In this document: positions 1-13,059 of the stretch, piece by piece
How positions within the stretch are numbered: the first letter of the stretch is position 1
How the letters are laid out: each line of letters opens with the position of its first letter
Assembly: GCA_030668825.1 (NCBI GenBank)
Contig: DAOVET010000056.1
Location: forward strand, 1-15,893
Direction of reading: 5' to 3'
Length of the DNA stretch: 15,893 nucleotides
DNA from: Candidatus Heimdallarchaeota archaeon
GTDB taxonomy: Archaea > Asgardarchaeota > Heimdallarchaeia > Heimdallarchaeales > Heimdallarchaeaceae
Made by a program: the position numbers and the translations under genes
Notes under the pieces: model-generated
What the model was told of the DNA's origin: nothing
The model's database searches: none
Seen by the model: the letters and a program-made list of their open reading frames with translations, nothing else

Positions 1-1070
1 AGACGTACGCCAAATTCACCAGCAAAGTATAACCCTGGTTCTACAGTAATTACTGAATTCTCTAGTAAGTTTTGAGCTGGTCTCTCGGGATACGACTTAC
101 TAATACCTACACCGATATCATGAGTTTCAATACCAATTGGATGTCCTGTAGAATGAATGAATAACTTTTCATGGTCATAACCAAATTCTTCAAATTTGTC
201 TCTTACAGCTTGTTCAACGATATCTGAAGGAATTCCTGCTTTGATTTTAGTATAAGCTGCTTCCTTTGCTTCGTGAACTGCTTCGTAAGCTCTAAGAACT
301 TCTTCGTTTGGATTGCTACCAATCCAGTATGTATGCGTAATATCAGAATTGGACATATCATAAGCAACCCCATAATCAATTAGAAGAACTTGATTTTCTT
401 TAATTTTACCAGTTCCTGCTTTATGGTGAGGTATAGCTGCATTGGGACCTGAGGCTACTATAGGTTCAAAGGCTACTCCACCTCTTTTATTACACTCAAA
501 TTCAATTATTGCTGCTAACTCTTTTTCTATCATGCCAGGTTTAATCGATGGTTCAATAACATCTTCCATCAATTCTTCTGCAAGCTTAGCTGAAATCTTA
601 TGATTTTCAATTTCTTTCTTGGTTTTGACAGCTCTTACATCATAGATAATCTCATTAGCTGAAATATAATTCAGATTTTTATTCTGATTAGTTAGAGCTT
701 TGAATGCCCCACTTGTTAGAATATCATAATTTAGTTTCTCAAACACTTCTTTCTCTTCAACAAAATTAAGTGCAATCGTTGAGTTATCTGAAATATTATT
801 GAATAGTTTACTTACCAATTCTGTAAATTCATTCCCTTGCTTGTAAGCTTTAATATCATAGGTTTTTTCATCTACAAGCATTTCTTCCATTCTTGATGTA
901 ATAACAGTGGGTTTTCCTGTTTTTGGAATAAGAGTAAGAGTAGCTGATGAAATCCATTTTTCATGTAAATATTTTTGATGAATATCATGAGAATGATGGC
1001 AGAAAATTATCCATCCATCAACATTATGTTTATCTAAAATCGCTTGAATTCTGTCTACTTTTTCATTCAA
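1..1070 (-). CDS. Xaa-Pro aminopeptidase/dipeptidase (M24B family); 3' end lies beyond the window
   Basis: Not in the ORF track because its stop is outside the window. Translated by hand from TTG at 1070 (an in-frame TAG lies just upstream): MNEKVDRIQAILDKHNVDGWIIF...AFEPIVASGPNAAIPHH...LLIDYGVAYDMSNSDITHT...FIHSTGHPIGIETHD...ITVEPGLYFAGEFGVR. These are the M24 metal-ligand motifs. Overlaps the cofC 3' end by 8 bp. Confidence 0.92.
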   Translation of the reverse strand, partial: MNEKVDRIQAILDKHNVDGWIIFCHHSHDIHQKYLHEKWISSATLTLIPKTGKPTVITSRMEEMLVDEKTYDIKAYKQGNEFTELVSKLFNNISDNSTIALNFVEEKEVFEKLNYDILTSGAFKALTNQNKNLNYISANEIIYDVRAVKTKKEIENHKISAKLAEELMEDVIEPSIKPGMIEKELAAIIEFECNKRGGVAFEPIVASGPNAAIPHHKAGTGKIKENQVLLIDYGVAYDMSNSDITHTYWIGSNPNEEVLRAYEAVHEAKEAAYTKIKAGIPSDIVEQAVRDKFEEFGYDHEKLFIHSTGHPIGIETHDIGVGISKSYPERPAQNLLENSVITVEPGLYFAGEFGVR

Positions 1071-1683
1071 AATCTACACATTCCTTAATTATTTGTCTTA
1101 TATTTTCTGGAATAGAATTATTTTCCATTATTTCTAACAAATCCTTAAATTTGTCTATATCTCTGTAAAAGTCCTTACTTTCTAAAATCTCATAAGATAT
1201 GGCTTCTTTTTCAAAAACATCTCTAAATCTTAAGGCTGAATTCTTTCCAAAGACCAATGGAAAAGAGTTATTCTTATTGAAAGTTAATATGCTTGTTCCA
1301 TTATCAGGCGTTGGACCAAGTAATATTTTTTTCTCGATTTTGTGTCTATAAAGAATTTCCTTAATTTCTTCAGATTTAATCAAAGGTAAATCAGCCATAA
1401 CTATTGTTATTATATCCTCTTTTATTTCTTTGAAAGCATTAGTCAGCGATTCATTTAACTCATTTCCCTTATCTAGCAGCAAAGTAAATTTTCCTGAAAA
1501 ACTAAGATTATTTTTCTTTGTTAATATATATAAGTGAACATCTGTTTCAATCATAGATACCTCATTTATAAGATTCTGAGTCATATAATAGAGAAGTTTG
1601 TCAACAGAAGTTTCCTTTAGATCAGACCTTAATCTGCTCTTATCACTCGCTGTTCCTCTATAAGGAATTATTATTGCTTCCAT
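1063..1683 (-). CDS. cofC: 2-phospho-L-lactate/PEP guanylyltransferase (F420 biosynthesis)
   Basis: 206 aa with IIIPYR..DKSRL, MADLPLI, PTPDNGTS, FGKNSA and DIDKFKDL motifs typical of CofC/FbiD; in the same operon as cofD. Confidence 0.88.
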   Translation of the reverse strand: MEAIIIPYRGTASDKSRLRSDLKETSVDKLLYYMTQNLINEVSMIETDVHLYILTKKNNLSFSGKFTLLLDKGNELNESLTNAFKEIKEDIITIVMADLPLIKSEEIKEILYRHKIEKKILLGPTPDNGTSILTFNKNNSFPLVFGKNSALRFRDVFEKEAISYEILESKDFYRDIDKFKDLLEIMENNSIPENIRQIIKECVDFE

Positions 1684-2476
1684 GGTTTTTCTGTCCTGTA
1701 TAATCTTTAACTAATCTTTGAATAAACTTTGGATCTCGAATCAATGGTCTAGCAACAGATACCGCTTTTGCTCCAGCTTCAAACATTGTCTTAATGTCGC
1801 TTATAGTTTGAACAGAGTTATTTCCAATAATTGGTATATCAGTTGAATTAGCGAGATTATGAATTAATTTAATATTAGCTCTGTTGTGTCCTGGTAACAT
1901 AGCATCAGAATGAATGAAACTAATTGAAAATTCATCTAAAATTCCTACAAATTTTTGATACTCATTAACTAAATATCCTCGAATTTTTATTCCTAAAGGA
2001 AATGTAGGAAGTATTGCTCTTATCTTATAAAGTAAGAGTTCCAACCCTTCTAGGTTTATAAGTAAACTCTGTCCCCCATTGGTATTGATAATTTCTTTTT
2101 GACGACAATGAGCATTTATTTCTATAAAATCAACAAATTCAGTAAATTTTTTTAACCACATTTTAGCTAGATTATCAACTTTAGAAAATCTTATGTTAAC
2201 ATTTATGGATTGATGTTTGTTTAGTTTTTCAAGATCTAAATTTTTCCTGCACCACAGTCTAGCATTCTTTTGTTTTGTTGGAAGAACAAACTCCTTTCTC
2301 CCTCTTTCAATCATTTTAATTGTAGCTTTATGAGATTCATAATCTATGGAAAATCCTCCTAAAGTTACCATACCTGCACCATATCTCAGAATTTCTTGGC
2401 AAAAATTTCTATTTGAAATACCAGCTAAGGCAGATTGAACAATTGGTGGTTTAAATTTAAAACCAAAATCTATCAT
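1658..2476 (-). CDS. Archaeal Dus-like FMN TIM-barrel protein (MJ0144/NifR3-related family)
   Basis: SALAGIS, MVTLGG, RGRKEF, IEINAHCRQ, IKIR, HSDAM, IIGNNSV and GAKAVSVAR motifs match the archaeal dihydrouridine synthase-like family. Confidence 0.85.
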   Translation of the reverse strand: MIDFGFKFKPPIVQSALAGISNRNFCQEILRYGAGMVTLGGFSIDYESHKATIKMIERGRKEFVLPTKQKNARLWCRKNLDLEKLNKHQSINVNIRFSKVDNLAKMWLKKFTEFVDFIEINAHCRQKEIINTNGGQSLLINLEGLELLLYKIRAILPTFPLGIKIRGYLVNEYQKFVGILDEFSISFIHSDAMLPGHNRANIKLIHNLANSTDIPIIGNNSVQTISDIKTMFEAGAKAVSVARPLIRDPKFIQRLVKDYTGQKNHGSNNNSL

Positions 2477-2480
2477 CGGA

Positions 2481-3407
2481 CTATCTCCTATTTAGAATGA
2501 AAGAGGAAAGTTTCTTTGGAATAGTTTCATCTCTAAAGAGAATGTTTTGTGTAAGAACTTCTAAACTTGTTTCTTTTTCAATTTCCTCTATATAATTCTT
2601 GTCTGTTTCATGAATTATAATAGTGCTACATATGTCTTTATACATTTTTGCCACACCTACAGGAGATATCTCAAAACCTTTGGTTTTCATCAACTTGCCT
2701 GTCGGTCCACTAACAGGTGCATCACCAATAATTGGACTTATAGCTATACATTTGTTTTTGTTTTTTTCAAGCGTTTTTCTAATGTGTTTAATGTCAATAA
2801 TGGGTCCAATGCTGGTGATTGGGTTACTAGGACCAATTATTATTAATTCTGAAATATCCAATTCATTTAGAGCTAAGTTTGGAACTATTGCTTTTTCAAG
2901 ATCTTTAACATATATATCTTTAATTTCGATTTCTCCTTTGTTTTTCACCCAAAATTCTTGGAAGTGAATGTTCCTATCATCCTTAGTAATAATACGCGTT
3001 TCAATATGATTTTCTGAACTTGGAAAAATCCTTGCTCTAATGCCTAGTTTCTCTCTCAAATTATCAATTATTACAGATTGATTTACTCCCTTTTGCATTT
3101 CATTTGTCCGAAAAACATGCATCCCTAAGTCTTTGTCTCCTAACTGGAACCAAGTGTTTACACCATACCTTTTTAGGAAGTCTAGAGTGTTGTAAGTTTC
3201 ATTTATTACACCCCAGTATTTTTCTGTATCTAATAGGTTGCTGAAGAGATAAAGAATTGTATCAATATCTGGAGAAACATAGTAACCATACACCCAGAAG
3301 TTGTCTGCAGAATTGGCAATTATAGATATTTGTTCTTCCGGAATATTACTTCTAAAACCTTGAATTAGTTTTGGGGTTCCTGTTCCTCCAGATAGGAAAG
3401 TTATCAT
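2481..3407 (-). CDS. cofD: 2-phospho-L-lactate transferase (F420-0 synthase)
   Basis: ITFLSGGTGTPKL, NSADN, SPDIDTILY, WFQLGDKDLG, HFQEFWV, IGPSNPITSIGPI and SPIIGDAPVSGP are canonical CofD motifs. Confidence 0.96.
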   Translation of the reverse strand: MITFLSGGTGTPKLIQGFRSNIPEEQISIIANSADNFWVYGYYVSPDIDTILYLFSNLLDTEKYWGVINETYNTLDFLKRYGVNTWFQLGDKDLGMHVFRTNEMQKGVNQSVIIDNLREKLGIRARIFPSSENHIETRIITKDDRNIHFQEFWVKNKGEIEIKDIYVKDLEKAIVPNLALNELDISELIIIGPSNPITSIGPIIDIKHIRKTLEKNKNKCIAISPIIGDAPVSGPTGKLMKTKGFEISPVGVAKMYKDICSTIIIHETDKNYIEEIEKETSLEVLTQNILFRDETIPKKLSSFILNRR

Positions 3408-3440
3408 TTTGAACCCTCATGATTTTAAAATTTTAAAAAA

Positions 3441-4253
3441 TTATTTAGCTGATTTTTTTGAGGTTGTTGTTTTAGATTTTGTAGCTTTTTTACTTGGTGC
3501 TTTCTTTGGTTTTTCAGCTTTTTTACTTGGTGTTTTATTTGGTTTTGCGGATGTCTTGCTTGGTTTTTTTTTTGGTTCTTCTTCAACTGGTTTTTCAGGT
3601 GTTTCTTTAGGCTTTTTTAGAGCAGTTTTTCTTGTTGTTTTCTTTTTAATAGTTCCTGTTTCTACTAAACGAAGTCGCGATGTTGACTTTATAACGACTC
3701 TATAATAAGATCCATGTTCTCCCATATCTGGATTTCGAACAATTTTGATAACATCACCAGGTTTTGCTTGAATAGCTTTCACAGCTGCATCATTTTCTAG
3801 GATTTTAGGTATTTGATGTCTTTCAATTTGATATCTCTCTAAGAAGTACTTTATTTCTGGTCTTTTAAGCTTGATATGTTGACGAACTATTTCATGATCA
3901 AAGATGTTAAACAGTGGATTATTACTACTTATAATTTCAATACCCAGTTTAATTGACTCTTTCTTTGCATAATGAGTTAAAGGTGATTCTGCAATAAGAA
4001 GGGCTTCACCAAGCTGTTCTTCCTCTTGTAGTTTTCCTAAAAGTCTAATTAATTTTACACCAATTTGAGGATTTTTTGGAAAACGTGCAATTGCAGTTAT
4101 CTTTTCCTTTTCTTCAGAAATTTTATCAGCATAAACATCTAGGAAATCGTCATCTTCTTTGGTATTTTTAATTTGAAATCCTCTAAATTCAAGAATCTCT
4201 TTAACACCATCCATTATCCTCTTTTCCTTAGCCTTTTGTTCTTTAGAAGACAA
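3441..4253 (-). CDS. rpoH: RNA polymerase subunit Rpb5/RpoH homologue with N-terminal jaw-like domain and Lys-rich C-terminal tail
   Basis: Residues ~114-188 (FNIFDHEIVRQH...QIPKILENDAAVKAIQAKPGDVIKIVR...YYRVV) form the RpoH/Rpb5 C-terminal domain. There is a ~112-aa N-terminal extension and a ~80-aa basic tail. TTG start preceded by GAGGT. Confidence 0.85.
   Translation of the reverse strand: MSSKEQKAKEKRIMDGVKEILEFRGFQIKNTKEDDDFLDVYADKISEEKEKITAIARFPKNPQIGVKLIRLLGKLQEEEQLGEALLIAESPLTHYAKKESIKLGIEIISSNNPLFNIFDHEIVRQHIKLKRPEIKYFLERYQIERHQIPKILENDAAVKAIQAKPGDVIKIVRNPDMGEHGSYYRVVIKSTSRLRLVETGTIKKKTTRKTALKKPKETPEKPVEEEPKKKPSKTSAKPNKTPSKKAEKPKKAPSKKATKSKTTTSKKSAK
3477..3575 (-). repeat. Three degenerate tandem 33-bp (11-aa) coding repeats in the Rpb5 tail
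   Basis: PKKKPSKTSAK / PNKTPSKKAEK / PKKAPSKKATK. AGCTTTTTTACTTGGTG occurs at 3483 and 3516 (33-bp period), with a degenerate third copy at 3549. Confidence 0.75.
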
Positions 4254-5615: not shown

Positions 5616-7883
5616 TTAGGAAAGAAAAGTAAGTTGTTTGAGAACATTGAATAACTCATCAATAGGCAGTTTTTGTAATTTCTTATTTTCTCTTGTTTTT
5701 CTTTCTAGCTCTTTTAGTAAAATACTGTATTCATAAGCTGATTTAGCTAGTTGTGCAAAGGTTGAATCGAATTGTGCAACAGATTGTAAGTGATCACTTG
5801 CATCTTTTGCTGCCTTTGCTCCATCGTTAAAGTGAGAGGCAGCCTTGTAATTTTCCTTATTAGTATCTGCACCAATTCCAAAGATTGCTTTCTTTGTTGC
5901 TTCCAAGAAATCGGTCAAAGCAAGAGATAATATCCTCTTAATTTCAATTGCATTCCAGTTGATATTTGAGTCCCTTAAATCAAACATCTCTTTATGATTT
6001 AATAGTTCTGAACAGTTTTCAGAAATTCGTTTGTTAATTATATCAAATAGAGCAAAATGATTGAAATTGTGATTTATAATTGTAAAATAATTTTTCTTTA
6101 TAGAATTTTCTGCAGATAGTGAGAATCTATATCCTTTAGCAATTTTATCTATTACAGTATTCAAAAACAAATACTGTCTGGATAGCTCAAATAAACGTAA
6201 TTCTACGTCCTGTCCTTGAATAAATGTTTGACTATATCTGTGTTCTACCCATTCCTTATTTATATTTGATTCACTGCTCAATTGAGATATTTCTAGTGCT
6301 TTTGTCGAATAATAATGAGCTTTAGCATGATATATGATATTCAAAACCTCATTTGATTCTTTTTCAACAAGATTTTGTTCTAAATACAAAGAGTTAGCCA
6401 TATACTCTAGACATTCTATGTCTTTCACAATGTAAACTTTCTTTTCTGTTTTAGGAAGGAAATAAGCTGATATCTTTATTGTTTTTATATTTTCTAGTAA
6501 AGGTTGTACATCTTCAGATTTTATTTTTGTATCTGCTTTTTCTATTTCAATCAATTGAGCAGAGATATCATTGATTGCATATTCTAATCTCTCAATAAAA
6601 CGAACTAGATTTTGTTCTGCTCTTCCCATTGCAACTTTCAGGTGTATATTTTCAAGCAAAGCAATTTTTAACTCTTGAACAAAGTTTAGATAAACAAATG
6701 GGAGACTACTTACATAATTGATATTTACCTTTAAACCTGGTTTATTCACTATTTCTTCTATTTGTTCTACGATGCTCTGAATTTCTTCTTTTTTCTCATC
6801 TGCGATTACATTGTACAATATTGAAGTTTTAGCTGCAAGTTCTGCAATTCCATGAAAGAACCTATGTATTGTTTCTTCTTTTTTGATATTTTCTTTTAAT
6901 TTCACAGTTCTTTCGTTCTTTTCCACGTTGGAGTCTAAGATTTTCAAAGCCTCCTCCTCTAGTCCTAGAACGAGATTCAGATATTCGACACTTGCAATAA
7001 AACTATCACTTTTAGCTGCTTCAAAACTCAATCTGAGATAATGGTCAATTAGCTCCTTATTTCTTTGAACTTGATTTAAGGAGATATGACTTGTTTCAAT
7101 TTGATTTCCTTTCAATTCTGGATCTTCAGGTATTTGTTTATAATAATCTAGTGCTACCTCAAGATGGCTTAAACTTCTTTCAAAAGCAAAGTGTGTAGCT
7201 ATTGAATCTTTCCACCACCAATCTTCTCCCAGTCTTTTTAGAAATTGTGCAGTGAAAGAAACATCAAATTCTGCCATTATTAGTTCATAAGCACCCTTTT
7301 CCTCGATTAATTTTTCCTTGCTATATCCATTGGGTGATTCTTCTAAAAGATGTATAATTTGTTTTTTTTGATTAAGTAATAGAAAAGTCAACATTACTTC
7401 TTCTATATTTGAAGCTCTTGGGTGAGATGAATCAAAATATGTTTGAGAAATTGTGTTTAGTATTCTATAACCCTCAATATATGATGTACAATAAACAGGA
7501 GATGGTTGAGAACCAAATATACCTGTATTAACAATATCTGCGTATACAATCATTAATATTGCTAATTCCATCTGGAATTCTTGTAAATCTTCCAATTTTT
7601 GAGTGATATTTTTTTTCCTTTTTTTATCTGCTTTAATTTGAGCTTGATCTCTCGTCCATTCATCCAGAAAACGACTATACAGCAGATGAGATAGCGATGA
7701 AACATTTGAAAGAGTGTTTGCACAAAATTGAGAAAAATCTAACCAAACTTGACTTATTTTATCCAAATCATCTATTTGTACAAAAGATTGGTAAATTCTT
7801 TCACGTTCTAATTCCATTAGTACAAATTGTTTGAATGGTGAATCACTTAGTAACTCGGCAATCTCTTTAGAAAATAACATCAA
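5616..7883 (-). CDS. Hypothetical large alpha-helical (TPR-like) protein
   Basis: 755-aa uninterrupted ORF, rich in Leu/Glu/Ala/Lys helices, with repeat-like segments (AHYYSTKALEI, AASHFNDGAKAAKDA); no catalytic motif recognised. Confidence 0.8.
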   Translation of the reverse strand: MMLFSKEIAELLSDSPFKQFVLMELERERIYQSFVQIDDLDKISQVWLDFSQFCANTLSNVSSLSHLLYSRFLDEWTRDQAQIKADKKRKKNITQKLEDLQEFQMELAILMIVYADIVNTGIFGSQPSPVYCTSYIEGYRILNTISQTYFDSSHPRASNIEEVMLTFLLLNQKKQIIHLLEESPNGYSKEKLIEEKGAYELIMAEFDVSFTAQFLKRLGEDWWWKDSIATHFAFERSLSHLEVALDYYKQIPEDPELKGNQIETSHISLNQVQRNKELIDHYLRLSFEAAKSDSFIASVEYLNLVLGLEEEALKILDSNVEKNERTVKLKENIKKEETIHRFFHGIAELAAKTSILYNVIADEKKEEIQSIVEQIEEIVNKPGLKVNINYVSSLPFVYLNFVQELKIALLENIHLKVAMGRAEQNLVRFIERLEYAINDISAQLIEIEKADTKIKSEDVQPLLENIKTIKISAYFLPKTEKKVYIVKDIECLEYMANSLYLEQNLVEKESNEVLNIIYHAKAHYYSTKALEISQLSSESNINKEWVEHRYSQTFIQGQDVELRLFELSRQYLFLNTVIDKIAKGYRFSLSAENSIKKNYFTIINHNFNHFALFDIINKRISENCSELLNHKEMFDLRDSNINWNAIEIKRILSLALTDFLEATKKAIFGIGADTNKENYKAASHFNDGAKAAKDASDHLQSVAQFDSTFAQLAKSAYEYSILLKELERKTRENKKLQKLPIDELFNVLKQLTFLS

Positions 7884-10320: not shown

Positions 10321-11442
10321 ATGAAAATAGGAATTAACTGCTTCCCAACTGTAGGAGGATCTGGTATTGTTGCTACACAATTAGCAATTGAGTTAGCTAA
10401 AAAAGGTCATGATATACATTTGATAAGTTATGATACACCCTTCTTACTACGAACTTATAGACACCCCAATATAACGCTTGACCTTGTAGATATTATTTCA
10501 TATCCCCTGTTCAAAGATATAGGAACTCCATATACGATATTAGCTGGATCAAAACTTGCTCGTATAGCTGAAAAATCTGATCTGGATTTACTACACATTC
10601 ATTATGCTATTCCTGTAGGAGTTTCAGCATATCTAGCAAAGCAGATTTCTGGTGTTCCTGTCGCAATTACGGCTCATGGTTCTGATATTCATACTTTGGG
10701 AGTAGATCCTGCATATAATCCAGTGATTTCCCATGTTTTTGATAATATTGATGGTTTATCAACTGTTTCAGAATATATGAAAAGAGAGATGGAAGAAAAA
10801 TTTTTTCACAATAAAGAAATTGAAGTTTTATACAATCCAATTGACATTGAAAAATATAAGAGAATAGATACTAAGTTATGTGACTTTAGAATTCAACATG
10901 AGAAAAACTTTGTACACGTTTCAAATTTCAGACCTGTCAAAAATGTCCCATTTATTGTAGAGGCATTCGCTAAAGTGGTTAAAAAACATCCAGACACAGG
11001 ATTGATAATGGTGGGAGAAGGACCTGAAAGAAAGAAATGTGAGGAAATAGCTAGTAAGTTGGGAATAAGGGATAATGTTACTTTCCAAGGAGTCAGAGTT
11101 TCAATCGCGCCAATTTATAACTGCGCTTCAGCTCTATTGTCAGCAAGTACAAACGAAAGCTTCGGGTTAACGATTGCTGAATCTATGTCCTGTGAAATTC
11201 CTGTAATAGCACCTAAAGTTGGTGGGATTCCGGAGGTAATTGACCACGAAGTAAATGGCTATGTCTATGAGCTTGGAAACAGTGAATCATTGGTGAAATA
11301 TATGCTTGAATTATTAGATAATCCTCAACGTGTAAGACAGATGGGTGCAAAAGGGAGACAAAAGGTCATTGATCAATTTGAAGCTGGAAAAATTGCTGAT
11401 AAGTACATTAAGTGGTATAACAGAGTTCTGGAAAATCTATAA
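10321..11442 (+). CDS. bshA: N-acetyl-alpha-D-glucosaminyl L-malate synthase (GT4), bacillithiol biosynthesis
   Basis: MKIGINCFPTVGGSGIVATQLA, SYPLF, HIHYAIP, TAHGSDI, HVSNFRPVK and ESFGL..AESM are BshA-type motifs; adjacent to bshC. ATG at 10321 is preferred over GTG at 10300. Confidence 0.88.
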   Translation: MKIGINCFPTVGGSGIVATQLAIELAKKGHDIHLISYDTPFLLRTYRHPNITLDLVDIISYPLFKDIGTPYTILAGSKLARIAEKSDLDLLHIHYAIPVGVSAYLAKQISGVPVAITAHGSDIHTLGVDPAYNPVISHVFDNIDGLSTVSEYMKREMEEKFFHNKEIEVLYNPIDIEKYKRIDTKLCDFRIQHEKNFVHVSNFRPVKNVPFIVEAFAKVVKKHPDTGLIMVGEGPERKKCEEIASKLGIRDNVTFQGVRVSIAPIYNCASALLSASTNESFGLTIAESMSCEIPVIAPKVGGIPEVIDHEVNGYVYELGNSESLVKYMLELLDNPQRVRQMGAKGRQKVIDQFEAGKIADKYIKWYNRVLENL

Positions 11443-13059
11443 TCTAGCATTAATATAACCTATTCCTCCTATAGGCGTATCTTTGCTATAATAACGCCTA
11501 TATGATGCTAAGTAATCTCCCAATCCCGTTACACTTGCCATGATGAACCAAGGCCAGCTTACTTCTTGCCACTTATGAAATCCATCATACATACCAAATT
11601 GCCAAGATTTGTATCTTTCAATTATACTATTTGGTTTATCTGAGTGTTTTATTACTTCTGACATCTTTGTTTTTATAATATCAGCCAAATGTTCTGATTC
11701 AAAAGACAGTTGTTCTTTTTCTCCTTTTCTTCTAGCTTTAGATAAACTTCCAAGTGTTTTGAAAAAATCTCCTGAAAATAGAGAAATTGATTCATCTTTT
11801 ATTTCATGATTAAGATTTTCAATCCAAGGAGTATTATATAATATTCTTGTATATTTTACAAAAATTGGGAATTTCAGACCAATCTTTCTTGTTGCTGGAA
11901 TTACTTGAGCGTTATAATTAATTTCTCCTGGTCCTGAAACCCTGACATACACTGGCATTATAGCTTGAAGGAGAGCTTGATTAGTATCTAATCTAGGAAC
12001 TAGATTTAAAGAAAGCGAAGAAAGATCAATGTTATTCTTATCAATATCAAATGAATATTTTTCCTCATCTAGAGGGCATTCCCCACTGAATGATAACACA
12101 CTATTTTCTTCTTTACAAGAAAGATTAAGTCTGTAGCCATCATTTGGACATTCATAGAAGAAAGGAGAAAATGTTTCTGCCTTTTTTGCTGTAGTAGTTT
12201 GATATCCTAATTCCTCTATTTTCTCTGATGCTTCATTGAACTCCTTAATATATTCCATTCTTTTTTCAAGAAAAGGTTTGTAACCATCTGTTGTTAACTT
12301 CCTGATTTCAGGATGAGAGGAAGGAAAGAAAATGACACCCCAATCATTAATTATATTCGCTTGGATTCCCCATAATAGAGTGATCCACTCACCTATGTCT
12401 TTCGAAGTCCTATACGTCTCTCTAATAAAAGTGAGAATATGGTCGACTTTCTCTGTGAATATTTCATGAGAGTTTTTTTCTATTGATGTTCTAAATTCAT
12501 TGAATATGTTCTTTACTATTGAAAGACTCTCTTCCATCCATTCATACTGGTTAGCTAAAATTTGGCTTGAAACTAGTCCATCTATTGCATTAGGTAAGAA
12601 AATTGATTTACTTATCGATGATTGATTATTGGGAAGATGAATAGTTGAAATTTCTGGTTGAATGCTATCATGAGTATTTACTAGAAACATAGGAACTAGA
12701 TAATGACCTTTTTCTTTACTAACGTCTGAAATTGTAGTGACTGTAGCAATTTTATTTCCAATAATTCCTGAACCTCCAAAGATAGTAGCTTGTTGTCCTC
12801 CTAAAACTATTCCTTGATGAATCAAATCTATATTGCGACTAACTTTCTCAGTTAGTAAACCTAAATCTTTGTGATAATTCTTAAGAATACGCTTTAATTC
12901 ATCTATTTTGTTGGAATCGATCTTAATTTCAGATGATTCTTTGGCTAAGCTGATTGCATCAGCTATCGTTTTAGGTACATTCCCATAGAAATAATTGATG
13001 TCAGGTAAATTAGAAACGTTTCTAACAAATTTTTCGTACAGGTCACCTAGTGGTCCCAT
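11437..13059 (-). CDS. bshC: Bacillithiol biosynthesis cysteine-adding enzyme BshC (divergent)
   Basis: 540 aa, the expected size. IVLGGQQATIFGG (cf. GQQ..L..G), LVPMF, LSLNLVPR..Q..IMP..VRVSGPGEINYNAQ (cf. GPGE..Y.AQ) and C-terminal WQEV. Convergent with bshA, overlapping it by 6 bp. Confidence 0.82.
   Translation of the reverse strand: MGPLGDLYEKFVRNVSNLPDINYFYGNVPKTIADAISLAKESSEIKIDSNKIDELKRILKNYHKDLGLLTEKVSRNIDLIHQGIVLGGQQATIFGGSGIIGNKIATVTTISDVSKEKGHYLVPMFLVNTHDSIQPEISTIHLPNNQSSISKSIFLPNAIDGLVSSQILANQYEWMEESLSIVKNIFNEFRTSIEKNSHEIFTEKVDHILTFIRETYRTSKDIGEWITLLWGIQANIINDWGVIFFPSSHPEIRKLTTDGYKPFLEKRMEYIKEFNEASEKIEELGYQTTTAKKAETFSPFFYECPNDGYRLNLSCKEENSVLSFSGECPLDEEKYSFDIDKNNIDLSSLSLNLVPRLDTNQALLQAIMPVYVRVSGPGEINYNAQVIPATRKIGLKFPIFVKYTRILYNTPWIENLNHEIKDESISLFSGDFFKTLGSLSKARRKGEKEQLSFESEHLADIIKTKMSEVIKHSDKPNSIIERYKSWQFGMYDGFHKWQEVSWPWFIMASVTGLGDYLASYRRYYSKDTPIGGIGYINARL

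Follow-up and report, generated by a model that had tools for sequence, protein, structure and literature searches.

A Dus-like barrel gene between cofD and cofC in a Heimdallarchaeon: a candidate reductase for the archaeal F420 side chain

What would a protein resembling the tRNA-dihydrouridine synthases (Dus) be doing between two genes for the assembly of coenzyme F420? The question is posed by contig DAOVET010000056.1 of a Candidatus Heimdallarchaeota archaeon (assembly GCA_030668825.1), whose 15,893 nucleotides (nt), analyzed at full length, we call the window. Near its beginning, a gene for a Dus-like protein of 272 amino acids (aa) lies between cofD and cofC. We suggest that this member of the MJ0144 family probably saturates the C=C bond of an enolpyruvyl group, at one of two steps of the F420 tail pathway. 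Quite possibly, it is an ene-reductase of the tail branch that depends on flavin mononucleotide (FMN) and has dehydro-F420-0 as its substrate; an earlier reduction, of phosphoenolpyruvate (PEP) or enolpyruvyl-diphospho-5'-guanosine (EPPG), appears rather unlikely. The case is built on gene order, family membership, active-site residues, fold, linkage to cofD and alternation with a nitroreductase.

In the tail branch, CofC activates a three-carbon phospho-acid with GTP, and CofD then moves the phospho-acid to the deazaflavin Fo. If the acid is PEP, the product is dehydro-F420-0, and the lactyl linker of F420-0 is obtained only once the enol C=C bond has been saturated. In mycobacteria, FbiB's nitroreductase domain carries out the reduction of dehydro-F420-0, after CofD has acted (PMC6450877). 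For archaea, the pathway revision of 2019 had no dehydro-F420-0 reductase to offer. Bashiri 2019 postulates one, "CofX" (PMC6450877), a 2024 paper ascribes the reduction step to "a yet-unknown enzyme" (PMC10949242), and a 2021 review continues to name a lactate kinase that was never identified, CofB, as the proposed source of 2-phospho-L-lactate (2-PL) (PMC8498797). As presented in these sources, archaeal lactyl-linker synthesis has been an open question for two decades (PMC6450877, PMC8498797, PMC10949242). The literature that we searched, subscription journals excluded, yielded no mention of MJ0144, no link of a Dus-like protein to F420 and, from 2022 onward, no assignment of the archaeal dehydro-F420-0 reductase.

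The first-pass annotation of the window had read the order cofD, Dus-like barrel, cofC, with a 4-nt gap and a 26-nt overlap. Open reading frame (ORF) calls and the sequence bear this out, with the ATG of the Dus-like gene at 2474-2476, four nucleotides from the cofD stop codon. The main features are the following.

2481..3407, minus strand: cofD (2-phospho-L-lactate / enolpyruvyl transferase), 308 aa; TIGR01819 305.4 bits (cut-off 257.45), PF01933 149.8 bits.
1658..2476, minus strand: MJ0144-family Dus-like FMN TIM-barrel protein, 272 aa, candidate F420 side-chain reductase; TIGR00736, PF01207, AlphaFold2 (AF2) model, Foldseek.
2099..2116, minus strand: codons of the N121-A-H-C124-R-Q126 signature loop with the presumed catalytic Cys (NAHCR at 2102-2116); from alignment.
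1063..1683, minus strand: cofC (guanylyltransferase), 206 aa; TIGR03552 105.8 bits (cut-off 105), PF01983 73.8 bits.

Is this arrangement peculiar to one contig? We searched the same 201 Asgard genomes for each gene, with a family threshold of E<=1e-10; the genomes include non-independent kin, and no p-value is given. The MJ0144 family was found in 42 of the 201 genomes (the match in G104 is weak and generic, at 43 bits) and cofD in 133, including all 42 family-positive genomes. According to the printed coordinates, 40 of the 41 strong family matches share the strand of cofD and are located 50-100 nt downstream of it, and the remaining one (G080) begins at a contig edge. With 40 of 41 strong matches adjoining cofD, the arrangement is far beyond chance. 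A nitroreductase of the type of FbiB's C-terminal domain (FbiB-C) was found in 71 genomes and, as we read the coordinates, lies directly upstream of cofD in 64 of them; two others are 1.4 kb away, four are at a contig edge or on a contig devoid of cofD, and the one in G088 is located elsewhere. Among NCBIfam models, each fetched nitroreductase matches best either TIGR03553 or full-length FbiB, with scores (113-176 bits) that do not reach the TIGR03553 cut-off. The gene is free-standing or fused to cofE, as exemplified by the orders nitroreductase-cofD-cofC and cofE-nitroreductase-cofD and by a cofE::nitroreductase fusion followed by cofD.

The two genes almost never occur together. There are 41 Asgard genomes with the MJ0144-type gene, 68 cofD-positive ones with the nitroreductase, and a single one with both, G088, in which the nitroreductase match is weak (66 bits) and on another contig. 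The operon comes in two forms, nitroreductase-cofD-cofC versus cofD-X-cofC, where X is the MJ0144-type gene. In terms of families of the Genome Taxonomy Database (GTDB), numbered here with an f, the MJ0144 type is present in eight (f1, f3, f5, f11, f12, f14, f19, f22) and the nitroreductase in six (f7, f9, f10, f13, f16, f18), with none in common. A pattern of this kind is classically seen where a single role is filled by either of two unrelated genes. The first-pass annotation had proposed a reductase role for the Dus-like protein, and alternation with an FbiB-type nitroreductase beside cofD fits that role specifically.

The source genome itself (2.76 Mb, 90.6% complete) contains cofC, cofD, two cofE genes, cofG, and a weak adjacent match taken as cofH, together with a single MJ0144-family member. 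No FbiB-C-type nitroreductase was found in it; the best TIGR03553 match reaches 30.8 bits and lies away from the cof locus. The genome thus has a real pathway gap: cof genes are present and an FbiB-C-type domain is missing. Searches of the same assembly did not reveal methanogenesis marker 9 (MM9) or another Dus candidate, the best PF01207 match (40 bits) being the Dus-like gene.

Genome surveys covered three phyla, with Nitrososphaeria, Thermoplasmatota, Bathyarchaeia and Methanococci outside the samples. In the phylum around Methanobacterium oryzae, each of the 151 genomes sampled has an MJ0144-family gene, and all ten fetched Methanobacteria loci have the order purO-cofE-cofD-arfA-X-atwA-MM9. 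Among 301 Halobacteriota genomes around a Methanosarcina genome, 209 have the family and 294 have cofD. We fetched 20 regions around Halobacteriota matches that were hand-picked from lower-scoring rows, with frames not resembling MM9 fusions, and cofD is directly upstream on the same strand in 17 of these 20, including 16 of 16 with a G+C content of at least 0.62. Judging by composition, phylum and a positive Haloferax control, these 16 high-GC regions are taken to be haloarchaeal. A cofD-linked nitroreductase was not found in the Halobacteriota: matches occur in 20 of the 301 genomes, are weak (58-78 bits), and none is beside cofD. A FastTree phylogeny of 117 members follows organismal groups and distributes the cofD-linked genes over three separate clades (Asgard, Methanobacteria and high-GC Halobacteriota), the last of which nests beside unlinked MM9-fused forms. 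The three separate clades imply that the linkage is either ancient and repeatedly kept, or was gained more than once.

A motif scan of one-genome-per-species contigs gave 478 relatives, from which we retained the 80 most similar; ORFs were called, CofD and CofC hidden Markov models (HMMs) were built from the window proteins, and neighbors were clustered. Among these best 80 of 478 loci, cofD is directly upstream in 28, two genes upstream in 20, and the upstream flank is shorter than 1.5 kb in 10; no cof gene was found within 8 kb in 22. In 27 of the 28 cofD-adjacent loci, cofC follows within three genes (at position +1 in 24, +2 in one, +3 in two). The 28 loci are labelled as Asgard archaea (Heimdall-, Hod-, Baldr-, Frey-, Borr-, Sif- and Promethearchaeota) or belong to unclassified metagenome-assembled genomes (MAGs) called "uncultured archaeon", except for one MAG labelled Thermoproteota, which genome classification puts in the Asgard phylum. 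In the Baldr, Frey and L049 loci, cofE is located 5' of cofD. The 20 loci with cofD two genes upstream have the order purO-cofE-cofD-arfA-X-atwA-MM9-cysG_N-hemA, and 19 of them are labelled Methanobacteria-type (Methanobacteriaceae, Methanobacterium, Methanobrevibacter and others), the remaining one (L069) being labelled Methanomicrobiales. The cof-free loci comprise Archaeoglobi with pyrF-dapF-X, one Hadarchaeota locus, and Methanocellales and Methanosarcina loci with atwA, X fused to MM9, a citG-like gene and dmrX. A comparison of the family with cof genes by neighborhood and co-occurrence, as proposed at the outset, is clearly positive in Asgard archaea, in the Halobacteriota sample and in Methanobacteria.

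Some features of relatives deserve mention in their own right. In Methanocellales, Methanosarcinales and some Archaeoglobi, the barrel carries the Cys-rich MM9 (TIGR03277) as a C-terminal fusion (fusions in L044, L052, L071, L074, L079 and L081; stand-alone MM9 at L082:10707-11186). In Methanobacteria, MM9 is encoded two genes 3' of the MJ0144-type gene, with the gene for methyl-coenzyme M reductase (MCR) component A2 (atwA) in between. This suggests that MM9 is a redox partner of the MJ0144 barrel. Some Archaeoglobi have a second, divergently oriented Dus-like paralog of about 300 aa adjoining the MJ0144-type gene (L060:4393-5295, L150, L151). Three Asgard genomes of family f19 (G020, G041, G058) have five cofD-like genes each, of which one is high-scoring and adjoins the MJ0144-type gene; three further paralogs have scores of 180-200 bits, and a fifth, of 96 bits, is listed for G058 alone.

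What kind of protein does the gene encode? It matches TIGR00736 ("MJ0144 family RNA dihydrouridine synthase-like protein") with 166.1 bits over positions 1-228 of 231, without reaching the cut-off of 218.7, and the Dus family PF01207 with 41.7 bits (cut-off 20.4) over profile positions 44-232 of 311, i.e., the barrel core only. The AF2 model (pLDDT 93.1, pTM 0.90) consists of a lone (beta/alpha)8 barrel that ends in one helix, and the C-terminal helical tRNA-recognition domain is not present in it; the solved Dus chains among the structure matches have 305-346 residues versus 272 here. Foldseek ranks DusB, DusC, the Thermus thermophilus Dus, human Dus2, and class-1 and class-2 dihydroorotate dehydrogenases (DHODHs) at the top, with DusB 6ei9 (E 4.2e-10, TMq 0.68), the DHODB structure 5ksw and 1vhn among the best matches. 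The nearest solved folds are all FMN enzymes whose target C=C bond lies beside a carbonyl or carboxylate. The fold is that of a TIM barrel and not that of a nitroreductase such as FbiB-C.

The catalytic loop of Dus reads N-x-G-C-P. Residues 121-126 of the Dus-like protein read N-A-H-C-R-Q instead, and in a profile search of solved structures the N-A-H-C loop aligns to the N-M-G-C loop of Escherichia coli DusB, with N121 and C124 opposite the DusB Asn and Cys, and K164/R166 opposite its K-I-R. An alignment of 27 diverse relatives has 24 invariant columns. They include E119, N121, H123, C124, R125, Q126 and E128 of an ExNAHCRQxE loop, K164, R166 and H189, as well as E62, D191, N219, N220, S240 and R243, each conserved in 27 of 27, and all 20 additional members examined from the sampled Halobacteriota have the NAHCRQ signature. 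The protein fits the signature of the MJ0144 family, namely a single-domain archaeal barrel of about 240-270 aa with ExNAHCRQxE and the other family invariants. Two earlier readings therefore stand: NAHCR (residues 121-125) in place of NxGCP, on the alignment with DusB, and the lack of a tRNA-recognition domain, on the single-barrel model and the partial Dus profile match. From the modeled fold, the Foldseek ranks and the conserved loop, it would follow that the protein retains the ene-reducing flavin machinery known from Dus and DHODH, without the part with which Dus holds tRNA. Several database members of the MJ0144 family are annotated as "tRNA-dihydrouridine synthase".

Comparison with known systems sharpens this picture. 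Dus proteins (PF01207; E. coli DusB 6ei9, T. thermophilus Dus 3b0p) share the FMN-type barrel, the Asn...Cys loop and the Lys-x-Arg strand, but they have a helical tRNA-binding domain and NxGCP in place of NAHCRQ. E62, E119, H123, R125, Q126, E128, D191, N219, N220, S240 and R243 are further invariants specific to the MJ0144 family, and the context of the Dus-like gene is F420 biosynthesis, not translation. The class-1 DHODHs (PF01180; Lactococcus lactis DHODB 1ep1 and 5ksw) belong to the same fold family (Foldseek E ~5e-10), match locally in sequence over the last two strands, and likewise have a substrate whose C=C bond is in conjugation with a carboxylate. However, identity is just 15-19%, the substrate loop is different, and the genomic context of the Dus-like gene is not pyrimidine biosynthesis. 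The FbiB-C or stand-alone nitroreductase (TIGR03553; mycobacteria, Thermomicrobia) has the reaction that we propose for the Dus-like protein, an FMN-dependent saturation of the dehydro-F420-0 enolpyruvyl group, and it occupies the same niche beside cofD in the cofE/cofD/cofC cluster. It has an alpha+beta fold, in contrast to the TIM barrel, and lies upstream of cofD, whereas the Dus-like gene lies downstream and was never fused to cofE in the loci seen. MJ0144 sensu stricto (TIGR00736) and the MM9 fusions share the full-length HMM match and all invariants with the Dus-like protein. In Methanobacteria, these genes are likewise found with cof genes, in the order cofE-cofD-arfA-MJ0144-atwA-MM9. 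The Dus-like protein differs in its score, which is below the TIGR00736 cut-off, in having no MM9 partner in its genome, and in the position of its gene directly between cofD and cofC.

How would such a protein act in F420 synthesis? We propose that it saturates the C=C bond left in the product of CofD. Reduced FMN would hand a hydride to the CH2 carbon at the end of the side chain, with C2 being protonated by the invariant Cys124 of the NAHCRQ loop. Dus proteins and class-1 DHODHs perform the same chemistry on the C5=C6 bond of uracil or orotate. Dehydro-F420-0 would be the most likely substrate, making the protein a non-homologous analog of the FbiB C-terminal domain; we favor it because the conserved partner is cofD and because the alternating gene acts after CofD. 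In evolutionary terms, a Dus-derived flavoenzyme would have passed from RNA or pyrimidine chemistry to the saturation of an enolpyruvyl phosphodiester. FMN binding, reaction, substrate and electron donor are all putative. The MJ0144 family could well represent the missing archaeal F420 enzyme, either "CofX" or a reductive substitute for "CofB".

That second term points to the earlier step, in which PEP (or EPPG) would be reduced to 2-PL (or LPPG, lactyl-2-diphospho-5'-guanosine) and the protein would functionally replace CofB. All the linkage and alternation evidence fits a PEP step equally well, and PEP, as a small alpha,beta-unsaturated carboxylate, resembles orotate, the substrate of the structurally nearest DHODH enzymes. 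Moreover, archaeal CofC/CofD pairs prefer 2-PL, whose source lacks an enzyme (PMC8764529, PMC8498797). Hasan 2022 calls cognate archaeal pairs "highly specific for 2-PL", which favors reduction before CofC; the "Ca. H. archaeon" of that study is a Hydrothermarchaeota MAG, not a Heimdallarchaeon (PMC8764529). Speaking against the PEP to 2-PL step, yeast with the CofC and CofD of Methanocaldococcus jannaschii forms dehydro-F420-0 and nothing further (PMC10949242). It is also cofD, not cofC, that is the conserved partner, and no cofC was found in the stretches around the gene in haloarchaea-like loci (about 6 kb on each side) and Methanobacteria loci. Finally, the characterized relatives of the alternating nitroreductase act on dehydro-F420-0, after CofD (PMC6450877). 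On balance, we regard the earlier step as unlikely, though worth keeping in mind.

Linkage to cofD indicates functional association only, and the protein might instead have some other F420-related function, as an oxidoreductase that depends on F420H2 or reduces F420, or in redox support of CofD or CofE, with co-regulation holding it at the locus. Methanogens hint at such a wider redox context, with MM9 fused or adjacent, with atwA adjacent and, in Methanocellales and Methanosarcina, with dmrX adjacent as well. However, this explanation leaves the near-perfect alternation with a biosynthetic nitroreductase at the same operon position unaccounted for, and neither MM9 nor MCR genes form part of the context in haloarchaea-like and Asgard members, nor does the source genome have MM9; we therefore find it improbable. 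Still less credible to us is that the protein is a genuine RNA dihydrouridine synthase of minimal architecture, next to cofD incidentally or for regulatory reasons. It is true that the best Pfam and Protein Data Bank (PDB) sequence matches are Dus proteins, that the Dus-type Asn, Cys, Lys and Arg are kept, and that the source genome offers no other Dus candidate. Yet the helical tRNA-recognition domain is missing, only 44-232 of the 311 Dus profile positions are matched, and an incidental position would not recur in three distant clades, nor alternate with a nitroreductase. The restriction to cofD-positive genomes (42 of 42, against 133 of 201 overall) would likewise be unexpected. Two other roles were considered. 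Maturation of tetrahydromethanopterin (H4MPT) or MCR was rejected as a general role, as the Asgard and haloarchaea-like members lack the MM9/atwA/dmrX context, and synthesis of riboflavin or an Fo precursor, suggested by the arfA neighbor, was judged unlikely, since arfA is not adjacent in the Asgard and Halobacteriota loci.

Besides the 2-PL specificity, several observations weigh against a dehydro-F420-0 reductase of the MJ0144 type. The TIGR00736 score falls below the cut-off of the model; as only 5 of the 42 Asgard matches exceed this cut-off, the model appears to be tuned to methanogen members. In the loci sampled, the Archaeoglobi, Methanosarcinales and Methanocellales members have no cof linkage. 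Of the 133 cofD-positive Asgard genomes, 25 have neither the MJ0144-type gene nor the nitroreductase. In at least one of them (G107) the locus is cut at a contig end. Neither gene was found near cofD in the 12 regions that we fetched from these 25 genomes. There, cofD is followed directly by cofC (f1, f8, f17, f21) or has other neighbors (f2, f6), and three of the 12 genomes belong to the GTDB genus of the source itself. Four of the genomes (G115, G097, G193, G002) keep cofG and cofE despite the lack of both reductase genes. G115 has a CofD 90% identical to that of the window. Between its intact cofD and cofC, the MJ0144-type gene is reduced to 38 codons from its start and 34 from its end, in a 183-nt spacer that encodes residues 1-38 and 239-272 (L104:5947-6129; G115:C169); this remnant could reflect an internal deletion of recent date, or else variation in the population or in the assembly. 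Similarly, the family is missing from 85 of the 294 cofD-positive Halobacteriota genomes, and 14 cofD regions of family-negative genomes revealed no substitute. No third reductase beside cofD was obvious among the selected neighbors scanned in these regions, 12 from Asgard archaea and 14 from Halobacteriota; the neighbors are rpoH, radical-SAM proteins, M24 or methionine aminopeptidases, ThrRS, Fic-like, CitG-like and unknown proteins.

It follows from these genomes that the MJ0144-type enzyme cannot be the only route to the lactyl moiety; other routes to a saturated linker must exist, or dehydro-F420 is tolerated. As a separate observation, the single-contig, 96% complete genome G012 (Asgard f17) combines cofD and cofC with three genes of the cofE type; a cofG was not found in it at E<=1e-30, and Fo may be salvaged.

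If the Dus-like protein and its relatives do saturate the enolpyruvyl group, the F420 pathway would be complete for methanogens, haloarchaea and Asgard archaea, and a compact gene would become available for heterologous F420 production. MM9 would be the electron-input module of the MJ0144 barrel, which would be the first functional assignment for this marker. A Dus-type barrel would have been recruited to small-molecule ene-reduction, and the tRNA-dihydrouridine synthase annotation of family members would be corrected. A concrete, widely conserved candidate makes the archaeal lactyl-linker question directly testable.

The gene packing around the candidate bears on its expression. The remaining features of the locus are as follows.

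3..1070, minus strand: M24 (Xaa-Pro-type) peptidase gene, overlapping cofC by 8 nt; PF00557 159.6 bits.
1658..1683, minus strand: 26-nt overlap of the Dus-like gene and cofC, with the Dus-like stop codon at 1658-1660 and the cofC ATG at 1681-1683; from ORF calls and sequence.
2477..2489, minus strand: junction of cofD and the Dus-like gene, with the spacer at 2477-2480, the cofD stop codon at 2481-2483 and AGGAGA at 2484-2489; read from the sequence.
3408..3440, minus strand: A/T-rich 33-nt spacer 5' of cofD with a TTTTAAAA-type stretch and GAGGG; read from the sequence.

The AGGAGA motif, 7-12 nt before the Dus-like ATG, is the presumptive ribosome-binding site of this gene, and the spacer 5' of cofD is a possible archaeal promoter with a ribosome-binding site. 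The tight packing makes co-transcription and translational coupling of cofD, the Dus-like gene and cofC plausible. A run labelled RNA-Seq, probably of DNA, gave a single 271-nt contig, at 1614-1884, which says nothing about transcription. In relatives, the overlap of the Dus-like gene with cofC is 26 nt in L014 and 4-44 nt elsewhere. The M24 peptidase gene (cluster c7) is found 3' of cofC in 19 related loci, and is probably a passenger, i.e., a conserved downstream neighbor.

The window has a G+C content of about 31% and is archaeal; its proteins are nearest to MAGs labelled Candidatus Heimdallarchaeota, with 88-92% identity. Its co-directional run on the minus strand comprises the genes for UPF0047, DUF1922, a 755-aa protein, a BpsA_C-like protein, OapC, an RpoH/Rpb5-like protein, cofD, the Dus-like protein, cofC and the M24 peptidase. 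The RpoH/Rpb5 gene 5' of cofD (3441-4253, minus strand) encodes an N-terminal extension that weakly matches PD-(D/E)XK domains of the restriction-endonuclease-like kind (Mrr_cat, NA-iREase1), and a Lys/Pro-rich tail. The same extension precedes the Rpb5 C-terminal domain at L098:5984-6559, L099:1593-2168 and L103:6014-7060, the two-domain layout recalls eukaryotic Rpb5, and the rpoH-cofD pair is conserved in several Asgard families. The 755-aa ORF (5616-7883, minus strand) has no Pfam or NCBIfam match; its length (754-755 aa) and position are conserved in L103-L105. Farther away, a 540-aa protein (11437-13059, minus strand) matches the N-terminal domain of BshC (PF10079, 94.7 bits; TIGR03998, 99.8 bits, far below the cut-off), a bacillithiol biosynthesis family that is unexpected in an Asgard archaeon.

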